A stretch of 37,468 nt of DNA, taken from Neophaeotheca triangularis (lineage: Eukaryota). This document shows positions 1,538-36,267 of this stretch, piece after piece. How positions within the stretch are numbered: the first letter of the stretch is position 1; each line of letters begins with the position of its first letter. The stretch spans positions 124,001 through 161,468 of the forward strand of contig BAAIJX010000052.1 in the NCBI GenBank assembly GCA_054600435.1, in the 5' to 3' direction. The notes beneath the pieces are model-generated. The model was not told the DNA's origin. It was given only the letters and a program-made list of their open reading frames with translations, and did no database searches. The translations under genes were made by a program, and so were the position numbers.

Positions 1538-3060
1538 TTACTCAGTGACCCTATCTCTCCCGCTCTCGGCCTCGATCTGCCTGACCTTCTCATCCACCAC
1601 ACCCGCTTTCCTGCGCGCGTCCAGGTACATCATAAACTCGGTGTAGTTCCGAGGCATGACCTTGATATCCCTATCGACGGTAAAGGTGTAGTTGAATTGG
1701 CCAGTGGGCTTGGTGGAGCCGTGTTCGACGTTGCGGACTTTGGAGTCCACTCTGACGACGACGCGGGTGCTTTTGCTGCCGCCTTCCGGGGGCCGGGCTT
1801 GGGCGTCTGGTGAATGCCCATTGTCGACGAGTGGTGGGTCTGTGTATACTACTGTTGCCGTTAGGTAGAGGACGCTGCCGACCGGGACGGGGTTTTGAAA
1901 GGTTGACGGGTCGAGAGAGACAAAGGTCGGGCGTGTGCGGGCGAAGCTCGAGGCACAGCAGAAGGCGAGCTCGAAGGCTGATCTCAGTAGTCGTCCTCCG
2001 AATATCATGAAATTGTGGCTTTGGTATCGTTAGCGTCTGCTCCTTATCGTGTGACAAGGCATGGGAAGGCGGACTCACCGGTTGCGATATTGCGGTTGCA
2101 TAATGTCCGCTGTCGACAGTTTCGTAGCGTCCATGAAGTGCACGTTATCCGGCTTCCGTAAGGGGTCGTTTGGGTCGTGGTACTTGAGTTGCTTCAGCCA
2201 CATGGCGTGTATGAGATCAGACTCCTCGTCGTTAGGTGTCTGCTTCAGCAACGATCGTCTCGAAAGCTCTTTGCGGTGTTGATTGTTCTTCTCGCCTCTC
2301 GCAAACAAACTCTTCTCCTCTTCCGTGTCTGTCCGGACGGGATTGATGCTCACTGGCTTCTTGGTGCCTGGGTCGAGAGACACCATGGTCATCTGGCAAG
2401 TCATCATCACCTCTTCGGGCTTGACTTTCTCGCCTTCTTTGGGCGCCTTCGCCACTTGAAGACTGATCTCCATTGAACTCCTGCCCGTGGCGTAAGTTAC
2501 CTGACCGCTGAGCTCTAGATCGCAGATCTCTTTCAGGGGGTGATTGATGGTGATGCGATCGCAAGCTGCCGTTACCGTGGTCACGTCGTCTCCAGTATGC
2601 TTGTATGCCACAACGCCGGAGAGGGCATCGAGATCCATGAACAACGCACCGAGACGGATATGGCCAGATGCATTGAGGTATGTGTCTAGTAACCAAGGAT
2701 CCTGCGCCAGTGGCAGTACCTGTAACGAGAGTTTTAGTGGACAGTCGCTTGAATTGGCTCCTGGTGCCTACCTACCACGCTATGGTAGCTATCGGACATC
2801 CTCTTGGGTGAAAGATCGCGGTTGGAAGGAGTTTGGGGCGCTTCCGACGGCTGACTCCCATCCTGGGCTTCTCTCTGCTGCTTTCGCAATGCTTCAATCC
2901 ATGGCGTCTGAATCCTACTCTCGGTCAAATCACGAAAGACACCATCAGTCTCTCTTCTGCTTGTTGCGGAGAGGAAGCGCTTTGCCTGTGTGGGAAACGT
3001 GTTGCAGCGTCTCACTAAGCTATATGGACGCGACGCTCTTGTTATCAGGTATCGCGACAT
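1538..3060 (-). CDS. Mitochondrial-type acyl-CoA thioester hydrolase (double HotDog fold, ACOT9-like), 3 exons, ~468 aa
   Basis: Exons 3060-2776, 2719-2079 and 2018-1538 join in frame across introns 2775-2720 (GTAGGT..CAG) and 2078-2019 (GTGAGT..GCTAAC..AAG). Motifs DTYLNASGHIR, MDLDALSGVVAYKH, VTAACDRI, TGRSSME and RNRHNFMIFGG..FELA. Arg/Ser-rich N-terminus resembles a mitochondrial presequence. Confidence 0.9.
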
Positions 3061-3554
3061 TGTATTTTATCGCGTGATTATCGAGCAAAGAATGTACAAG
3101 TAGTCGAATTTTGTGAAGCTGATGATTTCCGTTTCACCGGCGGTCGTTACTACCACGCTTGGTTAAACTAGAGAAATACGCGGGTAATCTGAAGATTCAT
3201 AGAGGTGTAAAGTGCTTGATAGCAGAACAATGGCTCTGTGAAACTACCTCCTGTATGCCTGTAGTCGAGAACAACTTGCCTACTAACTACATACCAGTAG
3301 ATAGGCTTTCCATGTTGGAGGTAGTGCTAGAGTTTGGGATAAGCTGACCGAGCCCCACCCGTGAACACCCGAAGCAATGGGACAGCGAGGCAATCGCGTA
3401 TCGACAAGAGGTATAGATAGATATTCCTTGAACAATTCGCAAAGTGTCGGTCAAACCAAAAGCACCTCAAAAAATCAATGGAATGCATCAAAAGGTAAGA
3501 GGGACCAGAAAATGGTGATTAGATTGGCATAAGGCGTTGGTTAAGAAAAAGTTC

Positions 3555-3562
3555 AAAAAAAA
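3555..3562 (-). terminator. RNA polymerase III oligo(T) terminator (T8) of the tRNA-Pro gene
   Basis: A8 on + (T8 on -), starting 12 nt downstream of the discriminator base at 3574. Confidence 0.8.
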
Positions 3563-3593
3563 TGTAACGATTTGGGTCGGGCCGGGATTCGAA

Positions 3594-3654
3594 CTATTCG
3601 GATATCGTTAGAACAAGACCATTGGAATATGTCTGATTAATAGTAGATGCTTAC
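3594..3654 (-). other. Spliceosomal-type intron (61 nt) between tRNA positions G53 and T54
   Basis: GTAAGC donor, TCTAAC branch motif (CTAAC at 3611-3607), AATAG acceptor. Removal restores CCGGG-TTCGAAT-CCCGG. Confidence 0.85.
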
Positions 3655-3670
3655 CCCGGGGCCTCTCGCA

Positions 3671-3709
3671 TTGATGCTCACGTGAACGTGAACCCGGACT
3701 CAGAGTGTA
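3671..3709 (-). other. Canonical tRNA intron (39 nt) at position 37/38
   Basis: Lies one base 3' of the anticodon (after G37) and has no AG end, so it fits a tRNA-endonuclease intron rather than a spliceosomal one. Confidence 0.85.
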
Positions 3710-3736
3710 CCCTAAGCGAGAATCATACCACTAGAC

Positions 3737-3796
3737 CTTTGAAGCGAAAGTCAGTACTGAGTCTGCTTGGGAGACGTTCAGTTTGGGGAGAGATAC
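3737..3796 (-). other. Spliceosomal-type intron (60 nt) between tRNA positions 9 and 10
   Basis: GTATCT donor, ACTGAC branch motif (CTGAC at 3754-3750), TTTCGCTTCAAAG 3' end. Removal restores the acceptor stem and T8-G9-G10. Confidence 0.8.
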
Positions 3797-4310
3797 CACT
3801 CGACCACTGGACTTCATTTCTAGAGCTGATGTCCTAATTAGGAAGCTAGACCGAAGAATTTTGGACGCAAGCTGATGTAGATTGCTGATGTAAGCCGAAC
3901 GCCATTTTGTATTATAATAGCTAACAGTTGGTCGGCCACGGACATGGGGTGAAGCGTTGATGGTCATTGGAATTAACGAGCAGAGGCAAAGATTCAAGAA
4001 CACCTGGAGCGCCTGAGGCATGATTAATGATGATAAAATCAAGATTCGACCTCACAGATGTCGCCATGACACGACAAAATCGGAAAACACAAGCGATATC
4101 TTTTGACGTCCACTACTTGGATGGTGGCAAATTGGGAAAAAGAGATATAACAAAATTTGAGCCGCGTTATTAGTGTTTTCCACCTATTGATGGAAATGCG
4201 TAGCCTTAGGAAGACGCGAAAAGAGTACTCGTACACGCAAGTTTCCTCCAAGGCTTGAGAAGACTACTGAACACCGAAGCTACCTCCCCGCACTACAGCA
4301 ATACCTATCC

Positions 4311-5594
4311 CTAATCAACCTCATCGAAAGGCACGCTCAATTTCCGCCTCTCCTCCCCGTACAATTCCCATCTTTTGGCAAAATACTCCGCCCCAAGCCC
4401 TGTGCTGACCACACCACCAGTGAGCCACGCACCTTTCTTGAACCAAGCCCAACAGTCACGCACACTCTTCAAATCCACCTTCCTTATCATATATCCCAAA
4501 CTCCCCGCCGCGCCGCCACAAACACCCACGTAGAATACCGGCCCAGCCGCAATCGCATATCCTGCGCCCGCCAGCAGCGCGACTTGCACAGCCGAAACCG
4601 CGGATAAGAAGCGTTTCCCATTAGCCTCCTGCGCGAGAGCGATGCTCTTGATGCCCGCAGCCACGTCATCGCGGATGTCCTGGTAGGCGTAGATCATGTC
4701 GTAGACGAGGGTCCAAGCTACGCAGCTTGCGTACAGACAGACCGCAGACGCGAGAGCGGGCATGTTGTGAAGGAGATCCACGCCCAGAGCCGGAAAGCCC
4801 ATGATTGCGCCCCAACTAAATGTCAGGCCGAGGACGAATTGTGGGTAGTTTGTGACGCGTTTGGCGAGAGGGTAGGTGCCTACGAGAAAGAGGGAGGGGA
4901 TGCCGTAGTAGAGGCATTGGGAGGGGAATTGTAGAAGGATGGCTAGGCCGGTGAAGAGTTGTACGCCGAGGAAGGGGATGGCTTGGTGGACGGAGATCGC
5001 GCCACGGGCAATTGGACGGAGCCGTGTGCGTGTTACGTGAGGGTCGAGGTTGCGGTCCCAGATGTCGTTGATCGTGCAACCTGCGCCGCGCATTATCAGA
5101 GCACCAGAAAAGAAGAGAGTGCTAGTTGTAAGGACGGTTAGGGGCGAAATGATGGGGTCGGTGAGAGGTGCAGCTAGTAGAGTGCTGAAGAGGCAGGGAA
5201 AGAAGAGGTAGTAGGTTCCTGTAGGCTTGTCGAGGCGTATGAGTTCGGCATACGGAACCCATGAGGCTGGTAGCAGCGACAGTAGGCCGGTCGTTGGTGG
5301 TGTGTATGGAGTGGGCTGCGGCTTAATCTGAACCTTTCTTGAGACATTCTGTCCCTCAGTCGACACCCATTGTTTCTGTGCTCTTGAATGTCTCACAGGG
5401 TCCAAACTTTTCCCTTCACTGCGGTAGTCGAACTTAGGTGGCTGCAGAGAGTTATGAGGCAGCGTTCTCAGATGCCTTGCAGATCCGGCGTTCGAACTCC
5501 CAAGTGAGTGTGGCTGGCGCGATAATTTCGAGAAAGAGCAATGTGACGATCGGAGCGTGGAAAGGCGGTATCGCAAGAGGAGTAGGTTCGCCAT
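4311..5594 (-). CDS. COQ2: 4-hydroxybenzoate polyprenyltransferase (UbiA family), mitochondrial, 427 aa, single exon
   Basis: ELIRLDKPTGTYYL, RGAGCTINDIWDRNLDPHVTRTRLRPIARG, YPLAKRVTNYPQ and YDMIYAYQDIRDD motifs; basic N-terminal presequence. Confidence 0.97.
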   Translation of the reverse strand: MANLLLLRYRLSTLRSSHCSFSKLSRQPHSLGSSNAGSARHLRTLPHNSLQPPKFDYRSEGKSLDPVRHSRAQKQWVSTEGQNVSRKVQIKPQPTPYTPPTTGLLSLLPASWVPYAELIRLDKPTGTYYLFFPCLFSTLLAAPLTDPIISPLTVLTTSTLFFSGALIMRGAGCTINDIWDRNLDPHVTRTRLRPIARGAISVHQAIPFLGVQLFTGLAILLQFPSQCLYYGIPSLFLVGTYPLAKRVTNYPQFVLGLTFSWGAIMGFPALGVDLLHNMPALASAVCLYASCVAWTLVYDMIYAYQDIRDDVAAGIKSIALAQEANGKRFLSAVSAVQVALLAGAGYAIAAGPVFYVGVCGGAAGSLGYMIRKVDLKSVRDCWAWFKKGAWLTGGVVSTGLGAEYFAKRWELYGEERRKLSVPFDEVD

Positions 5595-6178
5595 GGGCGG
5601 AGGACCTGCATACCTACCTCAATACTCGTGTCTCGTTCGAAGATGATTCGGGGAACCTACAAGTTGAGTGAGCAGCAACGAAGCTTAAAACATTACGAAG
5701 CAGCGACGATGATATTGACCATGAAAGGTAATGACCGAATCAGGAAGGTAAGTTGATGGTACGTTTGCTGCACTTGGGCAAGCTGTGAGATCTTGAGGAG
5801 ATGTTCCAAAGTGAAGGGCTTGGCAGTCTGCTTACTCATCGTGCGCAGGTAGGTAGCTTCCCCCCGCGATATACCTCCGACTTTCAACCTCCAACCTCCC
5901 ACCGCGCACAATCTTGCTTTTGTCCGCACTCACCCGCCTCACCGCACTGTTTTTGCTTGCCTGTTCACTTGTAAGCAAAGCTCGAGTGAGCTCTTCCCGA
6001 AGTCTGGCGCGTCAAAACACCCTCACATTGCTACACGAACGAACGCGCCGCATACAGACTATGCGACAACGGCTGGAGCCTTAATCGCGCGTCTTACGAA
6101 TTGTCACCCCAACTCGTCCTCTACTCAGCATATCGGCGGCTTACACTGAAGTGCCTGGCGGCAGCACTTACCCTCACC

Positions 6179-9100
6179 ATGCCGGCCCAGACGCCTCGGG
6201 CGTCCTTTCAGCCTATTCCGCCCAACTTCGACGTCAAGCAGCTTGTCGAGTCGACCAACAACTTCTCCTATGTCGATCGAATCAGCTATGATATGATTGA
6301 ACAGCAGGGGCAGGCTGCTTTTGAGCGCCTGGTTACTCTGCACGTCGTCGTGGGCGGTAAACCCCTGGTCATCGACGGTTTCGACGAGTTGCTGGATCCG
6401 TGGACATTCAGTGCAAAGTGGCTACGAGACAACGCTGGTGACAGACCGGAGAATGCGCGCAACCTCACCAACAAGGACAGCTTGCCACTCACGATGGCGC
6501 ACTATCTCAAGAACATGGGGCTTCTGACGAACCAATTCTTCGATGAGCCTGGCGCGTATGCGGAGAAGAAGAGGCAGAGGGTTTATCTTAAGGATATTGA
6601 TTGCCCGGAGGTTTGGGAGAACAAGCTAAAGGAACACATCCCAAGTTCACTTTTCTATCTCAACGACAGCACTGGTGAGCATGGTGGACTAGGGTCTGTA
6701 CCAGATCCGAACAGCAACGTTCCCGGTAGGCGTCTTGGGAAGGGCATTGCAAGAGCAGGGGATCTTATGAGCTCGTTGCCGCCGGAGATGAGAGCAGAGA
6801 ACTTGATGTGTTATATTGGCCACGAAGGAACGTACACACCCGCGCACCGAGAGATGTGCGCTAGCTTAGGGCAGAACATCATGGTCGAAGCTTCGAAGAC
6901 GGTTTCGGATGAGGGCAAGGCCGAGAAGCCGGGGTCCTCACTGTGGTTCATGACAGAATCAAAAGATCGCCACACTGTCTCCGAATACTGGCTCAGTGTC
7001 CTGGGTCATGACATCGAGGTCGAGAATCACTTTGCCCAGGTTGTCGCATGGAAGAAGGCACCGTTCAGTGTCTACGTTGTGGAACAGCGGCCAGGAGACT
7101 TAATCCTGATACCACCACTCGCCCCACACCAGGTCTGGAACCGTGGCACTCGCACCATGAAAGTCGCCTGGAATCGTACGACAGTTGAGACGCTGGAAAT
7201 GGCTATCAATGAAGCATTGCCACGCAGCCGCATCGTTTGCCGAGACGAGCAGTACAAGAACAAGGCCATTGTCTACTACACCCTGCAAAAGTACAGTTCA
7301 CTTCTTGCGCTGGCTCAGCAGCAGGCGTCTCGCATGCCAGCCGACGCCGCGGACGAACTTCTTTCCAAAGGCAAGGTCAGACAATTGGCAAAAGACTTCA
7401 AGCGACTGTTCTACTTGTACCGGCAGATCTTGCTTAGCGAAATGTTCAACCCCGAAGACCGCGACAATCCCAAGGCACTCGAATATCTGCCATTCGACTC
7501 TCATGTCACCTGTGCATACTGCCGAGGCAACATTTTCAACCGCTTCCTTAGTTGTCCATCGTGCAAGGACCTGCTGGGTCACCACGCCGACAATGAAGAT
7601 GGGGATCCGTACGATGTCTGCCTAGACTGCTACGCCATGGGTCGTTCTTGTGGTTGTCTCAGCAACCTCAAATGGGTTGAGCAGTTCAGGTGGAAGGAGC
7701 TGAGTGCCAAGTACGAGAGCTGGCGCAAGTTGATCATCGCATTGGAAGGCGGCACCACCGAGAAGACGCCGTTGCCTATCAACGAAGAACGCAAGCGTTA
7801 CGGGAAGCGCACTTTAGCAGAAGTCTGCAAGCTTCAGCTCAAGCGTAGGCCCTTCAAGGACGTCGTAAAGCCAACCAAGGACGCAAAATCAAGCGAAAGC
7901 GAGGAAGAGATTGACATGAACGACGACGGAACTGTCAAGAAGATCAAGAAGAAGCGTTCACCGGCCTGGCTCAAGAGCAACCATTCCTGCCATGTCTGCT
8001 TGAAGCGTCACCCAGCCTGGAAAATGGCTTCCTGCACCACTTGCGATCGTTGGTGGTGCTATGGCTCGCTTTTCAGAGGTTGGGACAAGATGCCCTTGGA
8101 GATTATGGAGAACCCTGACTTTAGTTGCCCGCACTGCTTGGGGATATGCTTCGCAGGATCCTGCAGGCGTGAGGGCAAGGGCGTTCCATACGAGCCGAAA
8201 GGTACCCTCCTAGGCCACGACACGAAGAAGGTCGCAGATGTCAGGAGTGTTGAGGCGCTTGTCGATTTCAGCCACAGTAATCTCAATTGGCTGAAAGACA
8301 ACGAGGAAGCGCGCACTGGGGAGACCACCAGGCTGAAGCGTGCCAGAGCCGAAGCTCAAAGGGCCAAGGAAGCCGACCCATCGCTCGACGATGATGAAGC
8401 CCACCACGAGCAGCCCGACGGTGGAGTGGATCAAAGCAGAGTGGACTTTGAATACTCACCCGGTGCCGAGGCCATCGACCCTGCGCTCGGTGGTGCCCCT
8501 CCGAGACAGGATCCCAACATAGATCCCGGCCTCGACGATAGCGACGATGCGATAGCTGCGCGACTACAGCAAGCAATGCTGCCGCCACCTGCCGCCATGG
8601 TCGCTGGTGCGCCCGCTCACAGTGCACCCGAGGGATACACCCCTGTTGGTTCTGCTGGATACGCGCCTCCCGCCGCACAGATGTACCAGCAAGGTGAAGA
8701 TGGTGAGTACAGCTATCCTGAACCCTATCAGCGACCTCAAAGCATCGAACCCACCGGAGACGATGGCAATGCCAACGGACGGAAACGCTCCCGCCAAGCG
8801 AACGAAGACGATGACTATGGCGACGAGGACATGGTCATGTCCTTCAAGCCCAAACCTAAGAAGCCTCGTCTCGCCGTTGCCGGCTTCCGCTCGACCGACC
8901 TTGCCGACGGCGCTACAGCCTCGAACAAAGCGAAGAGTGAAGCTCAACGGCAGTTCGAGAAAGAGAAGGAACGCAAGGCTGTCGACAAGGCAAAAGCCGA
9001 AGGGCGTTTCATCATGTTGCAGGCACGTCTCAAGGGCAAGCGCCGTATCGTGCAGCTCAAAGTTCCAGGTGCACGTCTTGCGCAACTCCTGGCTCAACAG

Positions 9101-10189
9101 GCTGCTCGTGCTGCTTTGGAAGGCGACGATACAGCAGAACCGGTTGCGGAGCGTGAAGCCGAACAAGGTGCGGCGCAACAACATCCCGGCAACGATGCCA
9201 ACGGCGAGGAAGAAGACGGCAGCCTGCTCCTATTGAAGAGTGATATTGCTCCCAAGAAACCCAAGGAGACTGGACCCTCCGCTTACGAGCAAAAACAACG
9301 TGATGGCTTCATCCTCACCAGCAAGACGAAGAAGGCTATGATACCGGTAGAGCGTGACGAAAACTACGGCTATCGCATCAAAACAAGCAAACAGGTGCAA
9401 CTTGCACCAGCTGAGAAGAGGAGACAGCCACGACGCAGCAACGTAGATTACGAGGAGATTGATGTTGGTTCCGATGAGGACGAACAAACCGAGAACTTCC
9501 TTTCTCAAAGCATGAACGGCGCCAGCGCCAAAACCAGCGGAGGGGCCAGCCGTCGCGCCATGCCTAGCTATCTCCAAAATAAGCACGCTGCTGACGACGA
9601 CTTGCCGGACGAACTTCCCGATGGGTACCGCGATCAAGACTCCCATGACAGGCGAGAGAGGCGCAAAGAGCTGAAACTCGCCCGTCTAGCCGCCGCCGGA
9701 GAAGCTTCACCGAACAACCAAGGCCACTCCACCACGAGCGGTAAAAGACCCAGCATGCGCCCCGCCACCACAACATCCAACACCCAAAACGATGACGACG
9801 ACCAGTTCATGGACATCGAGGAAGCAATGTCGCAACCACCTGCTCCTCACTCTCTCCCAAACAAGCACAAAAAAGGAACCATCAATGGCACTTTCGCCCC
9901 CGCCGCCTCCGCATCTTCCACCGCCAGTCCCGCCAAAGCCAAACCTTCCCCCGCCACGGCTCCATCGGGCAAACGTCCGCGCGGCCGTCCCCGTAAGTCT
10001 GGGAATTTGCAACCGGCTGCTCCAGCTACGAGCACGTCGTCTGCGCCCAGGGTGCAGGATGAGCAGGAGAAGAACCGGCTCGCGAAGTTGGAGCTGCTGA
10101 ATGGTGGTGGTGCTATGGTTATTAGTAGTGGGGAGAGCAGTAGTAGTGAGGGCGAGGATGAGGAGGGGATGGATAGTGTGAGAGCTTAG
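6179..10189 (+). CDS. JmjC-domain chromatin protein with Cys-rich zinc fingers (zf-4CXXC_R1-like) and a C-terminal AT-hook; resembles Neurospora DMM-1; ~1336 aa
   Basis: First ATG of the long ORF is at 6179. JmjC core YLKDIDCP..YIGHEGTYTPAHREMCASLGQN..QRPGDLILIPPLAPHQVWN (HxE..H triad), CxxC clusters, SCHVC..SCPHCLGIC, and KRPRGRPRK AT-hook. DMM-1 orthology is inferred from architecture only. Confidence 0.88.
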   Translation: MPAQTPRASFQPIPPNFDVKQLVESTNNFSYVDRISYDMIEQQGQAAFERLVTLHVVVGGKPLVIDGFDELLDPWTFSAKWLRDNAGDRPENARNLTNKDSLPLTMAHYLKNMGLLTNQFFDEPGAYAEKKRQRVYLKDIDCPEVWENKLKEHIPSSLFYLNDSTGEHGGLGSVPDPNSNVPGRRLGKGIARAGDLMSSLPPEMRAENLMCYIGHEGTYTPAHREMCASLGQNIMVEASKTVSDEGKAEKPGSSLWFMTESKDRHTVSEYWLSVLGHDIEVENHFAQVVAWKKAPFSVYVVEQRPGDLILIPPLAPHQVWNRGTRTMKVAWNRTTVETLEMAINEALPRSRIVCRDEQYKNKAIVYYTLQKYSSLLALAQQQASRMPADAADELLSKGKVRQLAKDFKRLFYLYRQILLSEMFNPEDRDNPKALEYLPFDSHVTCAYCRGNIFNRFLSCPSCKDLLGHHADNEDGDPYDVCLDCYAMGRSCGCLSNLKWVEQFRWKELSAKYESWRKLIIALEGGTTEKTPLPINEERKRYGKRTLAEVCKLQLKRRPFKDVVKPTKDAKSSESEEEIDMNDDGTVKKIKKKRSPAWLKSNHSCHVCLKRHPAWKMASCTTCDRWWCYGSLFRGWDKMPLEIMENPDFSCPHCLGICFAGSCRREGKGVPYEPKGTLLGHDTKKVADVRSVEALVDFSHSNLNWLKDNEEARTGETTRLKRARAEAQRAKEADPSLDDDEAHHEQPDGGVDQSRVDFEYSPGAEAIDPALGGAPPRQDPNIDPGLDDSDDAIAARLQQAMLPPPAAMVAGAPAHSAPEGYTPVGSAGYAPPAAQMYQQGEDGEYSYPEPYQRPQSIEPTGDDGNANGRKRSRQANEDDDYGDEDMVMSFKPKPKKPRLAVAGFRSTDLADGATASNKAKSEAQRQFEKEKERKAVDKAKAEGRFIMLQARLKGKRRIVQLKVPGARLAQLLAQQAARAALEGDDTAEPVAEREAEQGAAQQHPGNDANGEEEDGSLLLLKSDIAPKKPKETGPSAYEQKQRDGFILTSKTKKAMIPVERDENYGYRIKTSKQVQLAPAEKRRQPRRSNVDYEEIDVGSDEDEQTENFLSQSMNGASAKTSGGASRRAMPSYLQNKHAADDDLPDELPDGYRDQDSHDRRERRKELKLARLAAAGEASPNNQGHSTTSGKRPSMRPATTTSNTQNDDDDQFMDIEEAMSQPPAPHSLPNKHKKGTINGTFAPAASASSTASPAKAKPSPATAPSGKRPRGRPRKSGNLQPAAPATSTSSAPRVQDEQEKNRLAKLELLNGGGAMVISSGESSSSEGEDEEGMDSVRA

Positions 10190-10858: not shown

Positions 10859-12798
10859 CTACCACATGAACCTCTGCACCCTCCCGGGCTCACTCTCCCA
10901 CTCGAACCCCCGTCTCAAAAACAGCCACCCCGTTGCCAAATTCACAACCACAAACCAACCCGTCTCAGCCCACAAAACGGGATTTTGCGCTTCCCACCAC
11001 TGCGACGCGCTCTGGCGGCGGTTGTTGTTCTTGCGGCCGCTGCTAGAAGCGGAAGGCACGGGCTGCTGGGTGGGCAGGTGCAGACGCCAGAAAATCCAGG
11101 GGAGGAGAAGGTAGCGGGGTTCGAAGAGCGGGGCGGTTGTGAGTTGGAGGCTGGTCGTAAGGAGGTACAGGAGGAGGAAGGGGAGGGTGGTTGGCGTGGA
11201 GGAGGTAGGGAGGACGCTGGCGGCGTTGGATGGGCTGGGTGGGTCGATGGTTCGGGGGGCATTGGTGTTGGCTTCGGGCTGAGAAGGTTTGGTTGCCTGT
11301 ACCTTGGTTTGGGGGCTGGATTGGGAGGGATTGGTTGTAGGGCCGGGCGCCAAGGTGCGGTTTCGCGAGCCGAGGGTTTGTATCGCTGCCCATGCTGTTA
11401 GCAGATAGATTGGAGTTACTGCGTAGCGGACCAGTGGGTGTGTGTTGAGGAGGAGGCGGAAGATGTAGAAGGTGTAATGACGGTTGTCGGCGAGTGTGAA
11501 TGGGTGGACAATGGTGTTGAAGCGGATTGCTAGCATTGCGATAAGAGCAATGACAGCTAGGAGCAGGCGGCGTGGGAGGAAGTCTCGACGGCGGAAGATA
11601 AGGAGTGATTCGAGGGGGAAATTGCCGACTGAAGCGAGAACGGGAAGGATTAGTAGGTACGGGGCTAACAGCGGCCAGCTGAAGAAGGCGATGTAGGGCC
11701 ATATGTAGAGCATTTGCGGGAAGTGGAGGGTTGCCGTGTGATTTGACTTGTCCCCAAGGACCACGCTACCGTTGTAAACGATGAAAGAGCCGAATATGAC
11801 GAGGGTTGTGATGTAAGGAGCCAGGCGAACCAGCAGGGTGAGCAGGCCCTGCGGCTGAGAGATGGTTCTGAGCGTGCTGACTGCGATTGATGCGATGGTC
11901 TTGAAGATTTCTTCGAGGAAGTGTTAGCAGATTGGCAAAATCGGCACATATTCGTCAACAAGGCGTACCTCCCAAAGACGCCTGCCGTACAGGTGGTGCG
12001 TAGACGACATTATGTTTCCAGCTTGTTTTAATCACGCTCGTGAGAGAGTCGCCAAAACCCTCGGCTCTCCGGTACATGCTTTGCCTGATCACTGCATGGC
12101 CTCTATCCACCTCGCGGACTAGCGTTATACCAGCGGGGAATATGGCCACCCAGAAGATGTTGGTCTGTCTGAACAGCAGACTGATGACGCCGCTGAAAGT
12201 TAAAAAGAGGCCCTGGGATCCACTCGGCGGCCAGCTTTCTTTATGTGATGTCTGGAAAAGGTACCAAAAAAGCATGACCGACAGTGTTGAGGGGATGTCG
12301 GTGTAGTAGAGGCCGGAGAAAAAAAAGAGAGGTGGGAAGAGGGCGATGTTCAGCGCGTTATGCCAAGCGAAGCCCTCGAGATCGTTGCGGCCATTCGATC
12401 CATCGTCAGAGACCTGCGCAGAGTAGATCCCAAAGACGACGAAAAAGAGCCCTAATAGAGAAGCGGCTGCTACGAGTCTGAGGCTTGAGATGTCGCAGCC
12501 TAGGACGGGTTTGGCCAAGACCGAGAGGAGGTAGAGACCAGGTGGCGTGGTGATTTTCGGATCCCATACATCGAAGTTGCCTTTGCAGTACTCCTGGGCT
12601 TGACGGACGTGGAACACTTCATCCTATGAAGAGACTCGTAAGAACTTGATCCGGTGACCTACCTTTTAAGGCTACGTTGGTATGGTGACCTACTAGGTAT
12701 GGATCCGGTACTGTGGTCTGGACTTGGTAGAGCCAGAGGGCAACACTTGCACTGAGCAGGACATACGCCAGGGTGATAGCAGTATTTCGTGGAGCCAT
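10859..12798 (-). CDS. ALG10: Dol-P-Glc:Glc2Man9GlcNAc2-PP-Dol alpha-1,2-glucosyltransferase (DIE2/ALG10), 3 exons, ~603 aa
   Basis: Exons 12798-12694, 12623-11969, 11910-10859; introns 12693-12624 and 11968-11911. Motifs VPDPYL|DEVFHVRQAQ, WDPKITTPPGLY, FRQTNIFW, LGDKSNH, HPFTLADNRHYTFY, EPRY and terminal QRFMW. Confidence 0.95.
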
Positions 12799-18781: not shown

Positions 18782-19650
18782 ATGGTCGAGCTACGCAAGC
18801 GCCCGGCGCCTCCTCCAGCTCCCCCTCCAGCAAAAAAGAAAGCAACCCCGAAGCCCAAGACAACAAAAGAGAAACCCACAGTCTCCACAACCACCCCGGC
18901 CGACCCTCCAGCTCCCACGGCACCCGAAGAAGAACCAACCCAAACCGCAATCCCCCTCAACGACAACCCAACCAGCGCTCCCAGCGCCCCCAGTGGCCCA
19001 CCAAACCCCAACGACACAATTTCCCTAACCGACTTCGGCGGCGAAATCCAAACCAACTCGGGCGAAAAAACCACCCTAGCCTCCCTCGTCCAAGCCAGCA
19101 AATCCGGCGTGGTCCTCTTCACATACCCCAAAGCCAGCACCCCAGGCTGTAAGCACGCGCCGCTCCCCCACCATCAACCCCACTAACGTCACTCGCAGGC
19201 ACAACCCAAGCCTGCCTTTTCCGCGACGCCTACACGCCCCTCACAACCACCGGCCTAAGCCTCTACGGCCTCTCCACGGACTCCCCGTCCGCCAACTCTT
19301 CTTTCAAAACTAAGCAGAACCTGCCCTACACTCTTCTCTCCGACCCGCAAGCCTCCTTGATCGGGGCCATAGGTTTCAAAAAGTCGCCAAAGGGCACGCA
19401 ACGTGGGGTTTTCGTCGTGGATAAGGCGGGGAAAGTGCTGGCGAGGGAGGCTGGGGGGCCAGCGGCGACTGTGGAGGTTGTGAAGGGTCTTGTCGGGAAA
19501 ATGGATGGGGAGGGGGAGGGATTGGAAAAGGCTGAGGAGAGGGTTGCTGAGGAGAAGGAGGGGACGGGGGACAAGGATAAGAGGGCTGCAGAGGCGGCGG
19601 CCGAGGTTGCGGATGATGCTGAGGCTGCGGGTTTGGATGCCAAGGTTTAA
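18782..19650 (+). CDS. DOT5: Peroxiredoxin of the BCP/PrxQ class (nuclear Dot5-like), 2 exons, ~272 aa
   Basis: Exons 18782-19148 and 19199-19650; intron GTAAGC..CTAAC..CAG. Splicing restores FTYPKASTPGCTTQACLFRD (CxxxxC). Basic N-terminus MVELRKR..AKKK. Confidence 0.92.
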
Positions 19651-20285: not shown

Positions 20286-20324
<39 letters not shown>

Positions 20325-20358
20325 CGACGTTCGAGGCTGAGGTCGACGTTCGAGGCTG
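20281..20358. repeat. (AG)n microsatellite (~20 units, one interruption) followed by a perfect 19-bp tandem duplication
   Basis: AG run at 20281-20322; AGGTCGACGTTCGAGGCTG at 20321-20339 and 20340-20358. Confidence 0.95.
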
Positions 20359-25778: not shown

Positions 25779-27979
25779 GGGCCACGCAGACAGCGGCGGT
25801 GGGAACGCAAACAGGCGAAGCGTGCGTCGAGGCAGGGCGAGAGCAGGTATTGCTGGAGTCGTGGTCGTCGTGCTTGGTGCTGCTGTTGTTCTTGACTTCC
25901 CTTTCTCACTTAGGGTAAATGACAGACACTGTTGCGGCTGTGTCTTTTCTGGACCACACTCGCCGCGATTCGACTTGACTCAACTCGACGCCGCCCGTCC
26001 AAACCACCATTCTCCTCACCCAGCCAACCTCTCCGGTCTTCGGCTTCGACACCGAATTATCCTACCTCACACAAAAAGAAATTAAGCACGACAAGGGCGA
26101 GAGCGAAGGCGCAGTCGGGCGTTTTCACACTTTTTTTTCCTAGAGCAAGCCTTGCCTTTTGCTTTTTGGGCGAGGCGAGCGATGGAGGCTAGACATTTTC
26201 TTCCCAATAAAATAGCCGTCCGTCTAGAAGAGAAAGAGAGAAGGAGCGTGCTCTTTTTGGGGGGGACGCGGTTTCTTGATTCGACGGTTCGGTTGGCATA
26301 TTCTGTACTAATTCTTCCTTTTCCCTTTTTCGAAGATAAGAGTGGAGAGATGCCTTTTTTTTTTTTTTTTTGTAATGGGCATTGCTTTGCATTGTGTTGT
26401 GTTCGCATTGCTGCATTGCACGAGGCTGGCACGAAAGCGATGGCGTTTTGGTCGTTCTCTCTTGCCTGTCTGCGGGCATCTTTTTCTTTTGTGTAGTAGG
26501 GTGTAGGTGGTCGATAGTCAGTTGTGGTGGATACACAGGGCTAGTTACAGTGCGGTTCAGGGGATGGACTAGATGTCATTTTTGCTTGTTGTCACTATCA
26601 CTACTTACACCGTAATACTTTTTTACCCTTCCATCCCCCACTTCTACCCATCTTTCTAACAAACTGGATCCCCCCTTCAGGCCATCCATCTATCTACCAA
26701 GGCCCGGGACAAGTTGTCTTCCCTCGCCTCATCGGCCCTCTCCCGCTATTATACAACACTACTATTCCATTCCATCCCATAGACCTCTCCGCACACCCCC
26801 ATTCGCTCGTCAACCTCGTAGCGCTAGCGCGCCGCCCCCCCCCCCCCCCTCCTTGGGAGAAGAACCCGCTGGCGTCTAAAAGCACACGACTAGATATCTG
26901 CCCACGTCACGGCTCGGCTTAGTCCTTCGTTAGGGGTTGACGCCTTGGCCGACTGGCTAGAAGGAAAAGAAGAAGGACAGAGCAAGCGAGTGAGTGCGTT
27001 CCTCGACGGGAAGCGGTCTCGGTCCTCACTCACGCGTACGGGCATTTGTGTTGGGCTGCGAGGGGTCGGGTCGAGTGGGGAGTGTTTCGAATTGGATGGA
27101 TGGATGGACGGGGTTTATTTCGTTGGGATGGCGGGGATGGGTTTCGGTGCGAGTGCAGTGGAGGAGGAGGAGGAGGGGAGTGCGGTTGTATACGAGCAAG
27201 GGGGAAGATGGGTGCTGGACTCGCTGGCTCTTTTGTCTCTCCGTTGGGCTCTGCTTTGTGAGTTTTTTTCCTGATAGTTTTTCGAGCCCTTGCTCTTTCC
27301 TTTCCTTCTCTTCTCTCCCTCTCCACTTTGAGCTAAATCTCCTCCTCTTCCTCCCCCTCGACTCCCAGTCCGCGGCGAATGCAAGACAGCCAGCCAGCCG
27401 GCAAAGCCATCTAAGACCCTGGGCGAAGATTTCTTCGTGGCTTAGTCGCTAACAACAACAGAAGAAGAAGAAGAAGAAGAACCCAAACCACCCGAATCAA
27501 AAAGCGATCCCCAAACCCGCCTTCCCAAAAAAAAGAAAAGGAAGAAAAAAAAGAAAAAACCCCGAACCCATCAAACCCAGAACCTCACCCATCAATTGCA
27601 ATCCAGCTTCTCACGAGCCCGATCGACCTATAGATAGGCTAACCAATTGCAATCGCTAGTCCCATGAGTAAATAGGAAATTTTAACAAGTTCCCTCTCAG
27701 GGGCTAAGGGGACCCGTCCACGGCACCCGTTCGGAAATCTTTGTAGACGGGGGAGCTAGTTGTATAGGTAGGTAAGTAGGTAGGACGGCAATGACTTGTG
27801 CAAAAAAAAGAAAAGAAAAAAACACCCCTTACCCTAAAGATGAGAGGTGGTGGATGTACCTAGGTATGCATACATGCGGTTTTTGGCTTAGCTTAGGCAG
27901 ACGAGGATTACATGTATATTTGTGAATATGTGTGTATGTGTGTGTGTGTGTATACACGATAGAGACGGCACTTTAATTT

Positions 27980-34365: not shown

Positions 34366-36267
34366 ATGGAGACTTTCCACTTCTCAAGGGATCCCGCTGC
34401 TGAGATTGCCTCTTGGAGCGATGGAGTGCAGCCGGCTTCTCTAGCGGAACGGCTAGGCATCCTCTATAGCCAGCAGGAACAGCAAGAAAATGGCGAAAAC
34501 CAGCTTTATGATCCCTTGCCTTTGGACCAAAATTATATTCGTCTTTTGAAGCTGGATCGTGTTTTGGAGGACCAGGGTCTACGCGTAGATTGCAGCATGC
34601 AAACTTTCCCGCTCTCGAAGCTACCCCAATACGACGCCATCAGCTACGTATGGGGAGATTCTACAGACCGCACGCCTATCAATGTCTGTGGACAGACACT
34701 GTCGGTAACCGTTAACCTGGTTCTCGCGTTACGAACTCTTCGTGGGCATTTACAAAATCACTTTTGGATAGACGGCGTGTGTATCAATCAAGCCAATATC
34801 CAAGAACGAAATAGCCAGGTTCAACTTATGCACGTTATCTACGGTGAGGCGGCAACGGTACACGCTTTCATCGGGCATGCGCTGACACCGTCTACGCGAA
34901 ATGCCCTGGACATGGAGAGCCTTTCGTTTCCGTCTACTGCAGCGCGTGAACTCCTCATGTGGCCGTGGTGGAATCGATTGTACGTGTCATGCTGACAAAC
35001 ACAGTACCAGTATTAAAAAGCTAACGTGTACAACAGGTGGGTAATACAAGAGGTCAAGCTCGCACGTAAAGTCGTAGCTCATTTTGATACCCTTTGCATC
35101 GACTTTGACACGCTCACGGATAAGCTTGATTCTTGTCACGACAACGTTCGGCTGGTAACGGTCTGGAAGACACGCAACGGGCTCGGTTTGTATCGTCGCG
35201 GGACTTTCGATAAGATAGACCGTCTCATGCGAGGAATGGGTCTTCAAGAAGCCTCTGATCCTCGAGACTATGTTTATGGTGCTCTCGCCTTGCTCCCACC
35301 AGCGATTGATATCCAAGCGGATTACACCAAAAGCGTGGAGCATGTGTTCGAAGAGTTTGCAGCACGCACAATGCAGTCTCGGAATTCCCTCGACTTGCTC
35401 GATAACCTCGATCTTGGCGTACGATCTATCTCATTGCCTTCCTGGAGCCCGGACTGGAGGCTAAGCTCAATGCTGGCCCTTGGGCCTCCAGCACGGTGGA
35501 CCGCTTCCTGGGACGCTACTCCGCGCGTAGAGTACGTGTCTCGTGGCAGACTTCTCGTGCGAGCGTTCATCATCGACCGAGTAATCACTATCGCCTGCGA
35601 GTCAGCACCTGCGCCGCCGCTACAACATCTTTCCGAACTGGCTTACGTTGAGAGACTTCGCGTTCGTTTAGCCAATCAACGCCAAGTCATCGAGCGCGTT
35701 TCCACAACAGCGGCCACAAATTTCTGGAACTGTCAAGGCCTGTCGACTCTCATTATAGCCTCTGTTTTCGCATGTGAGACGGATGATTGCGAGCACGTTT
35801 GTGAGCGGTGGCTGAAAGGGGATGTTCAAGCAAGCCTGAGAGCCCAACAGTGGCTCACTGAACACCCCTCCATCTTTCAAGCTGATGTTTTTCTTACACA
35901 CCAAAGCCTCCTTGGCGATATACCTCAATGTATGCAGGTAATGAAGCCTGGCGATGCCATCGCTGCTCTCGCTGGCGCACGAAGTCTATGGATAATCAGA
36001 TGTTATGGCTGCCAGTCAGGTGCAGATGTGTACGAACTGATCTGCCCATTTCGATCAGAGGGTATGTAATACGCCTCACGCATTCCGATGTTGTAACATC
36101 CACTTTAACTATATTTTGCAGGCTATCCATTCAATGCAGCCTATAAGCAAGCCGTGAAGATTTCCGCAGGAGATGTCGAAGCCAGCTACATGCATAGCTG
36201 CGATGTGCGTGGGGATGATTTGGACGGTGTCCCCGACCACCTCTACAAAGAGATCATCCTTGTCTAA
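34366..36267 (+). CDS. Heterokaryon-incompatibility (HET, PF06985-type, HET-6-like) domain protein, 3 exons, ~594 aa
   Basis: Exons 34366-34979, 35037-36061, 36122-36267. Motifs IRLLKL, YDAISYVWG, FWIDGVCINQ..ERNSQVQLM..IY, WWNRLWVIQE (restored by splicing), ASDPRDYVY, LPSWSPDW, GDAIAALAG and terminal EIILV. Alternative start at 34234. Confidence 0.88.

Follow-up and report, generated by a model that had tools for sequence, protein, structure and literature searches.

Spliceosomal introns in genes for noncoding RNAs (ncRNAs) are known from the U6 small nuclear RNA (snRNA) of Schizosaccharomyces pombe and other fungi, in which a single gene can hold up to four, and also from the U1, U2 and U5 snRNAs of Rhodotorula hasegawae and from ascomycete ribosomal RNA (rRNA) genes (PMC5855946). 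Transfer RNA (tRNA) genes have introns of other kinds. According to a 2023 review, the four-subunit tRNA splicing endonuclease (TSEN) found in fungi and animals takes out introns at a single place, between tRNA positions 37 and 38 (PMC10485636). For Archaea, Cyanidioschyzon merolae and nucleomorphs, tRNA genes are described that have noncanonical and multiple introns dependent on a bulge-helix-bulge (BHB) fold (PMC3978253). The spliceosomal and tRNA types are called “completely unrelated” in a 2025 paper, which places spliceosomal introns in transcripts of RNA polymerase II (Pol II) (PMC12530127). Here we describe a gene for a proline tRNA, tRNA-Pro(AGG), in a 37,468-nucleotide (nt) stretch of DNA from Neophaeotheca triangularis (contig BAAIJX010000052.1, positions 124,001 to 161,468; hereafter the window), which is interrupted both by a canonical tRNA intron and by two insertions that look like the introns of messenger RNA (mRNA) genes.

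The gene occupies 232 nt of the minus strand (3805–3574) and consists of four exons and three insertions, all on that strand. The insertions fall at 9/10, 37/38 and 53/54 of the standard tRNA numbering (by our own conversion; position 17 is absent). Exon 1 (3805–3797, 9 nt) supplies tRNA positions 1–9, that is, the 5′ strand of the acceptor stem together with U8 and G9. At 9/10 it gives way to intron 1, a 60-nt intron of spliceosomal type (3796–3737; GTATCT...TACTGAC...AAG), in which the branch-like heptamer TACTGAC (3756–3750) leaves 14 nt between the branch A and the acceptor, AAG. Exon 2 (3736–3710, 27 nt) contributes the D arm, the 5′ strand of the anticodon stem and the anticodon loop, including the anticodon AGG, as far as position 37. 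The canonical tRNA intron, at 37/38 (3709–3671, 39 nt), does not have GT-AG ends. Exon 3 (3670–3655, 16 nt) runs from position 38 through the 3′ strand of the anticodon stem and the variable loop into the 5′ strand of the T stem and ends with G53. At 53/54 it is followed by intron 3, the second intron of spliceosomal type (3654–3594, 61 nt; GTAAGC...TTCTAAC...TAG), with the branch-like heptamer TTCTAAC at 3613–3607 and the same 14-nt spacing of its branch A from the acceptor, here TAG. Exon 4 (3593–3574, 20 nt) completes the molecule with the T loop, the 3′ strands of the T and acceptor stems and the discriminator C; the terminal CCA is not encoded.

When the four exons were joined by coordinate with a script, the resulting 72 nt were called tRNA-Pro(AGG) by ARAGORN, as a first-pass annotation of this DNA had expected of the product spliced in silico. 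When the two GT-AG insertions alone were removed, the program again reported tRNA-Pro(AGG), its anticodon loop now interrupted by an intron of 39 nt. Excision at the GT and AG ends is exact and yields the 72-nt tRNA without the gain or loss of a base, and the lengths of the four pieces, the ends of the introns and the minus-strand coordinates are precisely those that the annotation had given. With the introns out, ARAGORN recognizes a cloverleaf that has the conserved residues of the D loop, the anticodon loop and the T loop. Stem pairing is 20 of 21 as G-C, A-T or G-T, with A·C at 6:67 and T·T at 13:22 as the noted exceptions; exon 1 forms six of the seven acceptor pairs with exon 4, the exception being the A·C pair.

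On the untouched genomic locus ARAGORN made no tRNA call. A search against Rfam returned nothing in the window at the gathering score and, at an E-value of 10 or less, four weak matches in other parts of the window, of which none was to a tRNA. That standard finders would pass over the gene, as had been predicted from the sequence, was thus borne out by the silence of both programs on genomic DNA. To gauge how often excision by itself creates a tRNA, we cut out every GT...AG segment of 35–110 nt with a YTRAY motif near its 3′ end on both strands of the window (1,381 plus-strand and 1,202 minus-strand candidates), singly and in neighboring pairs, for a total of 13,430 constructs. ARAGORN reported a tRNA in four of these, and all four were variants of the locus at 3805–3574. 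The same scan, which allowed for at most two excisions, detected no other split tRNA gene in the window. The boundaries of the exons were set by the tRNA and not by splice signals, yet the insertions at 9/10 and 53/54 both turn out to have a GT, a branch heptamer and an AG in the proper order.

How closely do these two insertions match the mRNA introns of the same DNA? Five such introns could be delimited in the window, with lengths of 50, 53, 57, 58 and 60 nt; AAG is the acceptor in two cases. The intron at 2078–2019 (60 nt, GTGAGT...GCTAAC...AAG) is confirmed by a 20-residue gap, containing stop codons, in a tblastn alignment of a homologous protein, and the one at 2772–2720 (53 nt) fits a break between tblastn high-scoring segment pairs. 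The introns at 11911–11968 (58 nt, ending in AAG), 19149–19198 (50 nt) and 34980–35036 (57 nt) were placed by the continuity of the open frame. Hence the two AAG acceptors to which the first-pass annotation had likened that of intron 1 are both present, the one at 2019 confirmed by the tblastn gap and the one at 11911 by open-frame continuity only. The branch-site consensus that we used is of the CTRAY type. By the GT donor, the branch motif and its spacing, the AG acceptor and length (60 and 61 nt as compared with 50–60 nt), the insertions at 9/10 and 53/54 fit the local mRNA introns, a resemblance that the annotation had claimed and that we can endorse.

The same architecture exists in other genomes. 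A scan of metagenomes with a pattern that required only an AG directly before exon 2 yielded five loci (L001–L005), three of which contain the three-intron gene. These represent two distinct sequences, L004 (to which L002 is identical over 3,029 nt) and L005. In both, the exons are 9, 27, 17 and 19 nt long and a canonical intron of 21 nt lies at 37/38. The intron at 9/10 is 53 nt in length, starts with GTTAGT or GTAAGT, has TACTAAC at a distance of 11 nt from the acceptor and ends in CAG. The T-loop intron is 53 or 54 nt in length, starts with GTAAGT, has AACTGAC at 13 nt from the acceptor and also ends in CAG. ARAGORN found nothing in L004 and L005 before excision and tRNA-Pro(AGG) only after it. 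Exon 2 is identical at all 27 positions in the window, L004 and L005. The position of the T-loop intron is 53/54 in the window but 54/55 in L004 and L005, and it has kept its GT and AG in both places. Splicing guided by the GT and the AG explains this displacement by 1 nt; a system that measures the geometry of the tRNA does not. No synteny with the window was seen in the 1.3–3 kilobases (kb) that were compared around each homologue; a 130-residue open reading frame (ORF) of L004 had no homologue, and none of eight ORFs of L004 had a Pfam match above the curated cut-offs.

The remaining two loci were rejected as instances of this architecture. L001 is an ordinary tRNA-Pro(TGG) gene with an A at position 8, and L003 is a tRNA-Pro-like piece for which the contig holds no matching 5′ acceptor strand. 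The L003 piece (1080–1250) is missing its first 9 nt and has a degenerate, partial copy of the D and anticodon regions some 60 nt upstream; it is probably a tRNA-derived repeat or a pseudogene in an unrelated organism. In collections of prokaryote and virus contigs, patterns anchored on exon 2 or on exon 3 plus the adjoining donor had zero matches, as expected there.

Comparison of L004 with L005 reveals which parts of the gene are held constant. The exons are identical at 72 of 72 positions and the canonical intron at 21 of 21, whereas identity is 43 of 53 in GT-AG intron 1 and 33 of 54 in GT-AG intron 3 (76 of 107 for the two together). In the 200-nt flanks, 172 of 201 positions are identical upstream and 136 of 212 downstream. 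Fisher's test separates the exons from the GT-AG introns (p = 2e-8) and shows no difference between those introns and the flanks (p = 0.46). Within the GT-AG introns, the blocks that have been kept are the donor, the stretch from the branch site down to the acceptor, and the acceptor itself. The first-pass annotation had looked to orthologues for exons and splice signals that are retained amid diverging intron interiors, and this is the pattern that L004 and L005 display.

The window and L004 differ at 8 of the 72 positions of the mature sequence. Four of these differences fall at two pairs, 5:68 and 52:62, where a double, compensatory change replaces G-C by T-A; one converts the A·C at 6:67 to G-C; and three are in loops and are unpaired. 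None of the eight breaks a pair in L004, and the T·T at 13:22 is common to the two sequences. Pair 5:68 joins exon 1 with exon 4 and pair 52:62 joins exon 3 with exon 4. Because the compensated pairs join different exons, the stems under selection exist only across the insertions or after their removal. In what can be learned from sequence comparison, then, purifying selection has acted on the sequence and structure of the mature tRNA.

The insertion in the anticodon loop stands apart from the other two. As judged from its position, its ends, which are not GT-AG, and a predicted helix, the 39-nt insertion behaves as an ordinary TSEN-type intron. A hairpin between anticodon and intron is predicted in the window and in L004 and L005, with bases 5–11 of the window intron pairing with the anticodon loop, and a stretch of ten bases close to the start of the intron (3698–3707) is identical in all three genomes, in spite of lengths of 39 nt in the one case and 21 nt in the others. 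The 60- and 61-nt insertions lie away from the 37/38 location of TSEN-type introns. Nor do they have the BHB motif, for which we looked for two 3-nt bulges holding the splice sites and a 4-base-pair helix between them. With the register held strictly, the central helix was absent from all nine introns of the three genomes, zero to two of its four pairs being formed (one of four and zero of four for introns 1 and 3 of the window; one or two of four in L004 and L005).

We consider it likely from these sequence features that the locus is a working nuclear tRNA-Pro(AGG) gene of a dothideomycete-like ascomycete, and that its precursor needs both the spliceosome and the tRNA endonuclease. In the pathway that we envision, the spliceosome would remove the two introns at 9/10 and 53/54 as lariats, in the manner of U2-type GT-AG introns and as in the fission-yeast U6 precursor. 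Only when these introns are out would the D arm, the T arm and the acceptor stem be able to form. The tRNA splicing endonuclease, measuring from the folded body, would then cut out the intron at 37/38, and tRNA ligase would seal the exons. The proposal that the pre-tRNA depends on both machines was made in the first-pass annotation, and it gains support from the splice signals, the lack of a BHB motif, the conserved architecture and the compensatory changes.

Putative signals for transcription lie close to the gene. On the minus strand, a run of eight T residues that resembles a terminator for RNA polymerase III (Pol III) starts 12 nt after the 3′ end of the tRNA (3555–3562), and a second run, of five, is found further downstream (3546–3550). 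L004 has runs of five and seven T residues within 20 nt downstream, and L005 has a run of six. Inside the 232 nt of the window gene there are no runs of four or more T residues, and in L004 and L005 there is only a single T4. The conservation of T runs right after the gene leads us to favor Pol III as the polymerase that would make the precursor. An upstream promoter, or transcription by Pol II instead, is possible, since a start directed by the A box would fall inside intron 1. L004 (around 1380–1440) and L005 (reverse strand, around 730–790) share a TATA-like block some 55 nt upstream of exon 1 and a 16-nt block about 25–40 nt upstream of it; the window has no obvious counterpart to either. 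In the fission-yeast U6 gene, a B box lies within the intron. A replacement B box in the canonical intron of the present gene was considered and dropped, as L004 has GTTCAA there and the window has only GTTCAC.

Several observations weigh against a working gene that is spliced in this way. The A·C mismatch at pair 6:67 is found in the window, where L004 has G-C. Intron 1 begins with GTATCT and so has no G at +5, whereas all five of the local mRNA introns do. The introns interrupt both of the internal Pol III promoter box regions; by our reading, boxes close to the consensus are restored in the window where exons 2 and 4 begin, through the intron-terminal AG/G, but in L004 and L005 the B-box-like stretch is one base short at the junction. 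In a DNA run filed under the same organism label (X2; 0.20 of sampled words), at least two contigs run exon 4 straight into exon 3, with a loose end at 3594. Such contigs mean that there are tRNA genes in which this T arm is not interrupted and that the split copy may be redundant. An earlier suggestion that the locus might be indispensable is therefore unsupported so far. Two metatranscriptome runs (X3 and X5) gave contigs over the locus at a depth of 2, covering 3580–3730 and 3726–3876 in X3 and 3666–3835 in X5; all are unspliced, and no spliced junctions were seen in them. These contigs, one of which reaches 71 nt upstream of exon 1, may be contaminating DNA, and they show neither transcription of the locus nor its absence. 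A further run with the same organism label, X7, yielded no contig over the locus, which does not prove that the gene is missing from it. Lastly, we know of no Pol III transcript except U6 that is a substrate of the spliceosome.

The mismatch, the weak donor, the split promoter boxes, the uninterrupted T-arm copies and the exclusively unspliced contigs are all what one would expect if the window locus were a dispensable, decaying copy that had been hit by two insertions while uninterrupted paralogues supply the tRNA-Pro. We nonetheless think this unlikely. The layout is kept in two other genomes, whose exons agree at 72 of 72 positions against a divergence of about 15–40% in the GT-AG introns and flanks, and compensatory changes preserve stems that exist only after splicing. 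Moreover, six of six introns have a GT, a branch site at 11–14 nt and an AG, unlike chance insertions. The X2 run points in the same direction: among the 40 of its 112 differences that are listed, those inside the gene comprise single-base insertions or deletions in introns 1 and 2 and, in intron 3, five substitutions, as against none in the exons. As evidence of selection this contrast in sequence is weak. A role for the pieces other than as a tRNA, either as a DNA element that binds TFIIIC or marks a chromatin boundary or as an unspliced tRNA-like module in a Pol II transcript, would be in keeping with RNA-library contigs that extend upstream of exon 1 and with a position between two genes of the same strand, the UbiA-family ORF and the thioesterase gene described below. 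Such a role strikes us as very unlikely: a DNA element leaves unexplained both the compensation in RNA stems and the completeness of the tRNA, down to its anticodon loop, T loop and discriminator, and all three genomes have kept T runs immediately behind the last exon.

Least likely, in our estimation, is that the spliceosome plays no part and that the insertions are cut out by the tRNA endonuclease through recognition of local structure, as happens in archaea, red algae and nucleomorphs, or by some other endonuclease and ligase, with the GT and AG ends being incidental. The gene does already depend on an endonuclease for its 37/38 intron, and all of the noncanonical tRNA introns described earlier in eukaryotes are of the BHB kind (PMC3978253). 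Neither insertion has a BHB central helix in any of the three genomes, however, and the fungal TSEN is reported to be active only at 37/38 (PMC10485636). A mechanism blind to the splice signals would also have to accommodate the fact that the GT, the branch motif and the AG are kept while the remainder of the intron drifts, and that the GT and AG survive a change of 1 nt in the position of the intron. Removal by the spliceosome is the reading that we prefer on this point.

Set against the described systems, the two GT-AG introns are like the spliceosomal introns of ncRNA genes in being short, in having canonical donors, branch sites and acceptors, in being otherwise unconserved and in lying within conserved parts of a structured RNA (PMC5855946). 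U6 offers a close parallel, being a Pol III transcript that is spliced by the spliceosome, and introns of this sort are concentrated in fungi (PMC5855946). What differs is the host, a tRNA gene, a class that is not among the genes listed in that review. A further difference from U6 is that the tRNA precursor also holds an intron that is spliced by proteins, so that two splicing systems would operate on one small RNA. The 39-nt insertion is like the canonical TSEN introns, in contrast to the insertions at 9/10 and 53/54, which are off-site and have spliceosomal signals (PMC10485636 and PMC12530127). With the tRNA genes that contain BHB introns the present gene shares several introns per gene, their location in the regions of the D and T arms and its escape from standard finders; it differs from them in that the fold is absent here and that BHB introns are without GT, branch-site and AG signals (PMC3978253).

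A search of the full-text literature, whose coverage leaves subscription journals largely outside, found no description of spliceosomal introns in tRNA genes. Textbooks and recent reviews keep spliceosomal and tRNA introns apart as unrelated classes, each with its own substrates (PMC12530127, PMC10485636), and this separation would not survive a tRNA precursor dependent on both machines. Such a precursor would also extend the list of ncRNAs with spliceosomal introns, so far snRNAs and rRNA, to one in which such introns are combined with a canonical tRNA intron. Annotation of the tRNAscan type would miss or mislabel genes of this kind, and apparent gaps in the tRNA sets of fungi may be artefacts. 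Questions that arise are how a gene with interrupted internal promoter boxes is transcribed, how the spliceosome deals with a first exon of 9 nt and whether translation and splicing are coupled. A broader proposition is that spliceosome-dependent biogenesis of tRNA is conserved and selected in a fungal lineage, that the three-intron gene supplies most or all of the tRNA-Pro(AGG) and that many hidden split tRNA genes exist in eukaryotes. Taken jointly these claims are speculative, and we regard them as rather doubtful; were they true, the decoding of the proline codons CCU and CCC would depend on the activity of the spliceosome, and current tRNA gene sets would be incomplete.

How the introns arose can be considered in light of U6, whose introns are usually explained by reverse splicing into an RNA that resides in the catalytic center (PMC5855946). 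That model is not obviously applicable to a tRNA, and having a tRNA as host puts in question, as a model, an origin by reverse splicing into RNAs located at the spliceosome's active site. In the Dothideomycetes, introner-like elements, that is, multiplying families of introns, reportedly account for recent gains of spliceosomal introns. No second copy of intron 1 or intron 3 was found in the 37-kb window. A tandem 8-nt near-repeat overlaps exon 1 (3797–3813, minus strand), consisting of GTCCAGTG followed by GTCGAGTG, with the GT of the intron directly after it. The near-repeat could be a trace of the origin of the intron or could be due to chance. An alternative 5′ splice site at the upstream near-repeat was rejected, as by our count of pairs it gives a poorer acceptor stem.

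As to the surroundings, the tRNA gene lies midway in a 1.26-kb spacer between a gene for an acyl-CoA thioesterase (HotDog ACOT-type; 1541–3048, minus strand), which has at least two short introns, and an ORF for a UbiA-family prenyltransferase (4314–5618, minus strand), and it is on the same strand as both. The best protein matches of the thioesterase gene are from rock-inhabiting Dothideomycetes, with identities of at most 84%, and it is on these that the assignment of the window to a dothideomycete-like ascomycete is based. Beyond the prenyltransferase ORF is a long ORF with a JmjC domain (5990–10189, plus strand). Microsatellites are present at about 20295–20330, (GA)n, and 27930–27950, (TG)n, as seen in the weak Rfam alignments.

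Finally, the X2 run has two further features. Over 3018–3238 it has two contigs that cover the same 221 nt at similar depth, with 4 and 22 differences, and the run seems to be a mixture of two haplotypes or strains that have diverged from each other. In one X2 contig, position 3902 is connected with a point near 3733 on the opposite strand, with 82 letters on the shorter side; one haplotype seems to have an inverted tRNA-Pro-like copy, complete with the canonical intron, about 100 nt upstream of the split gene.

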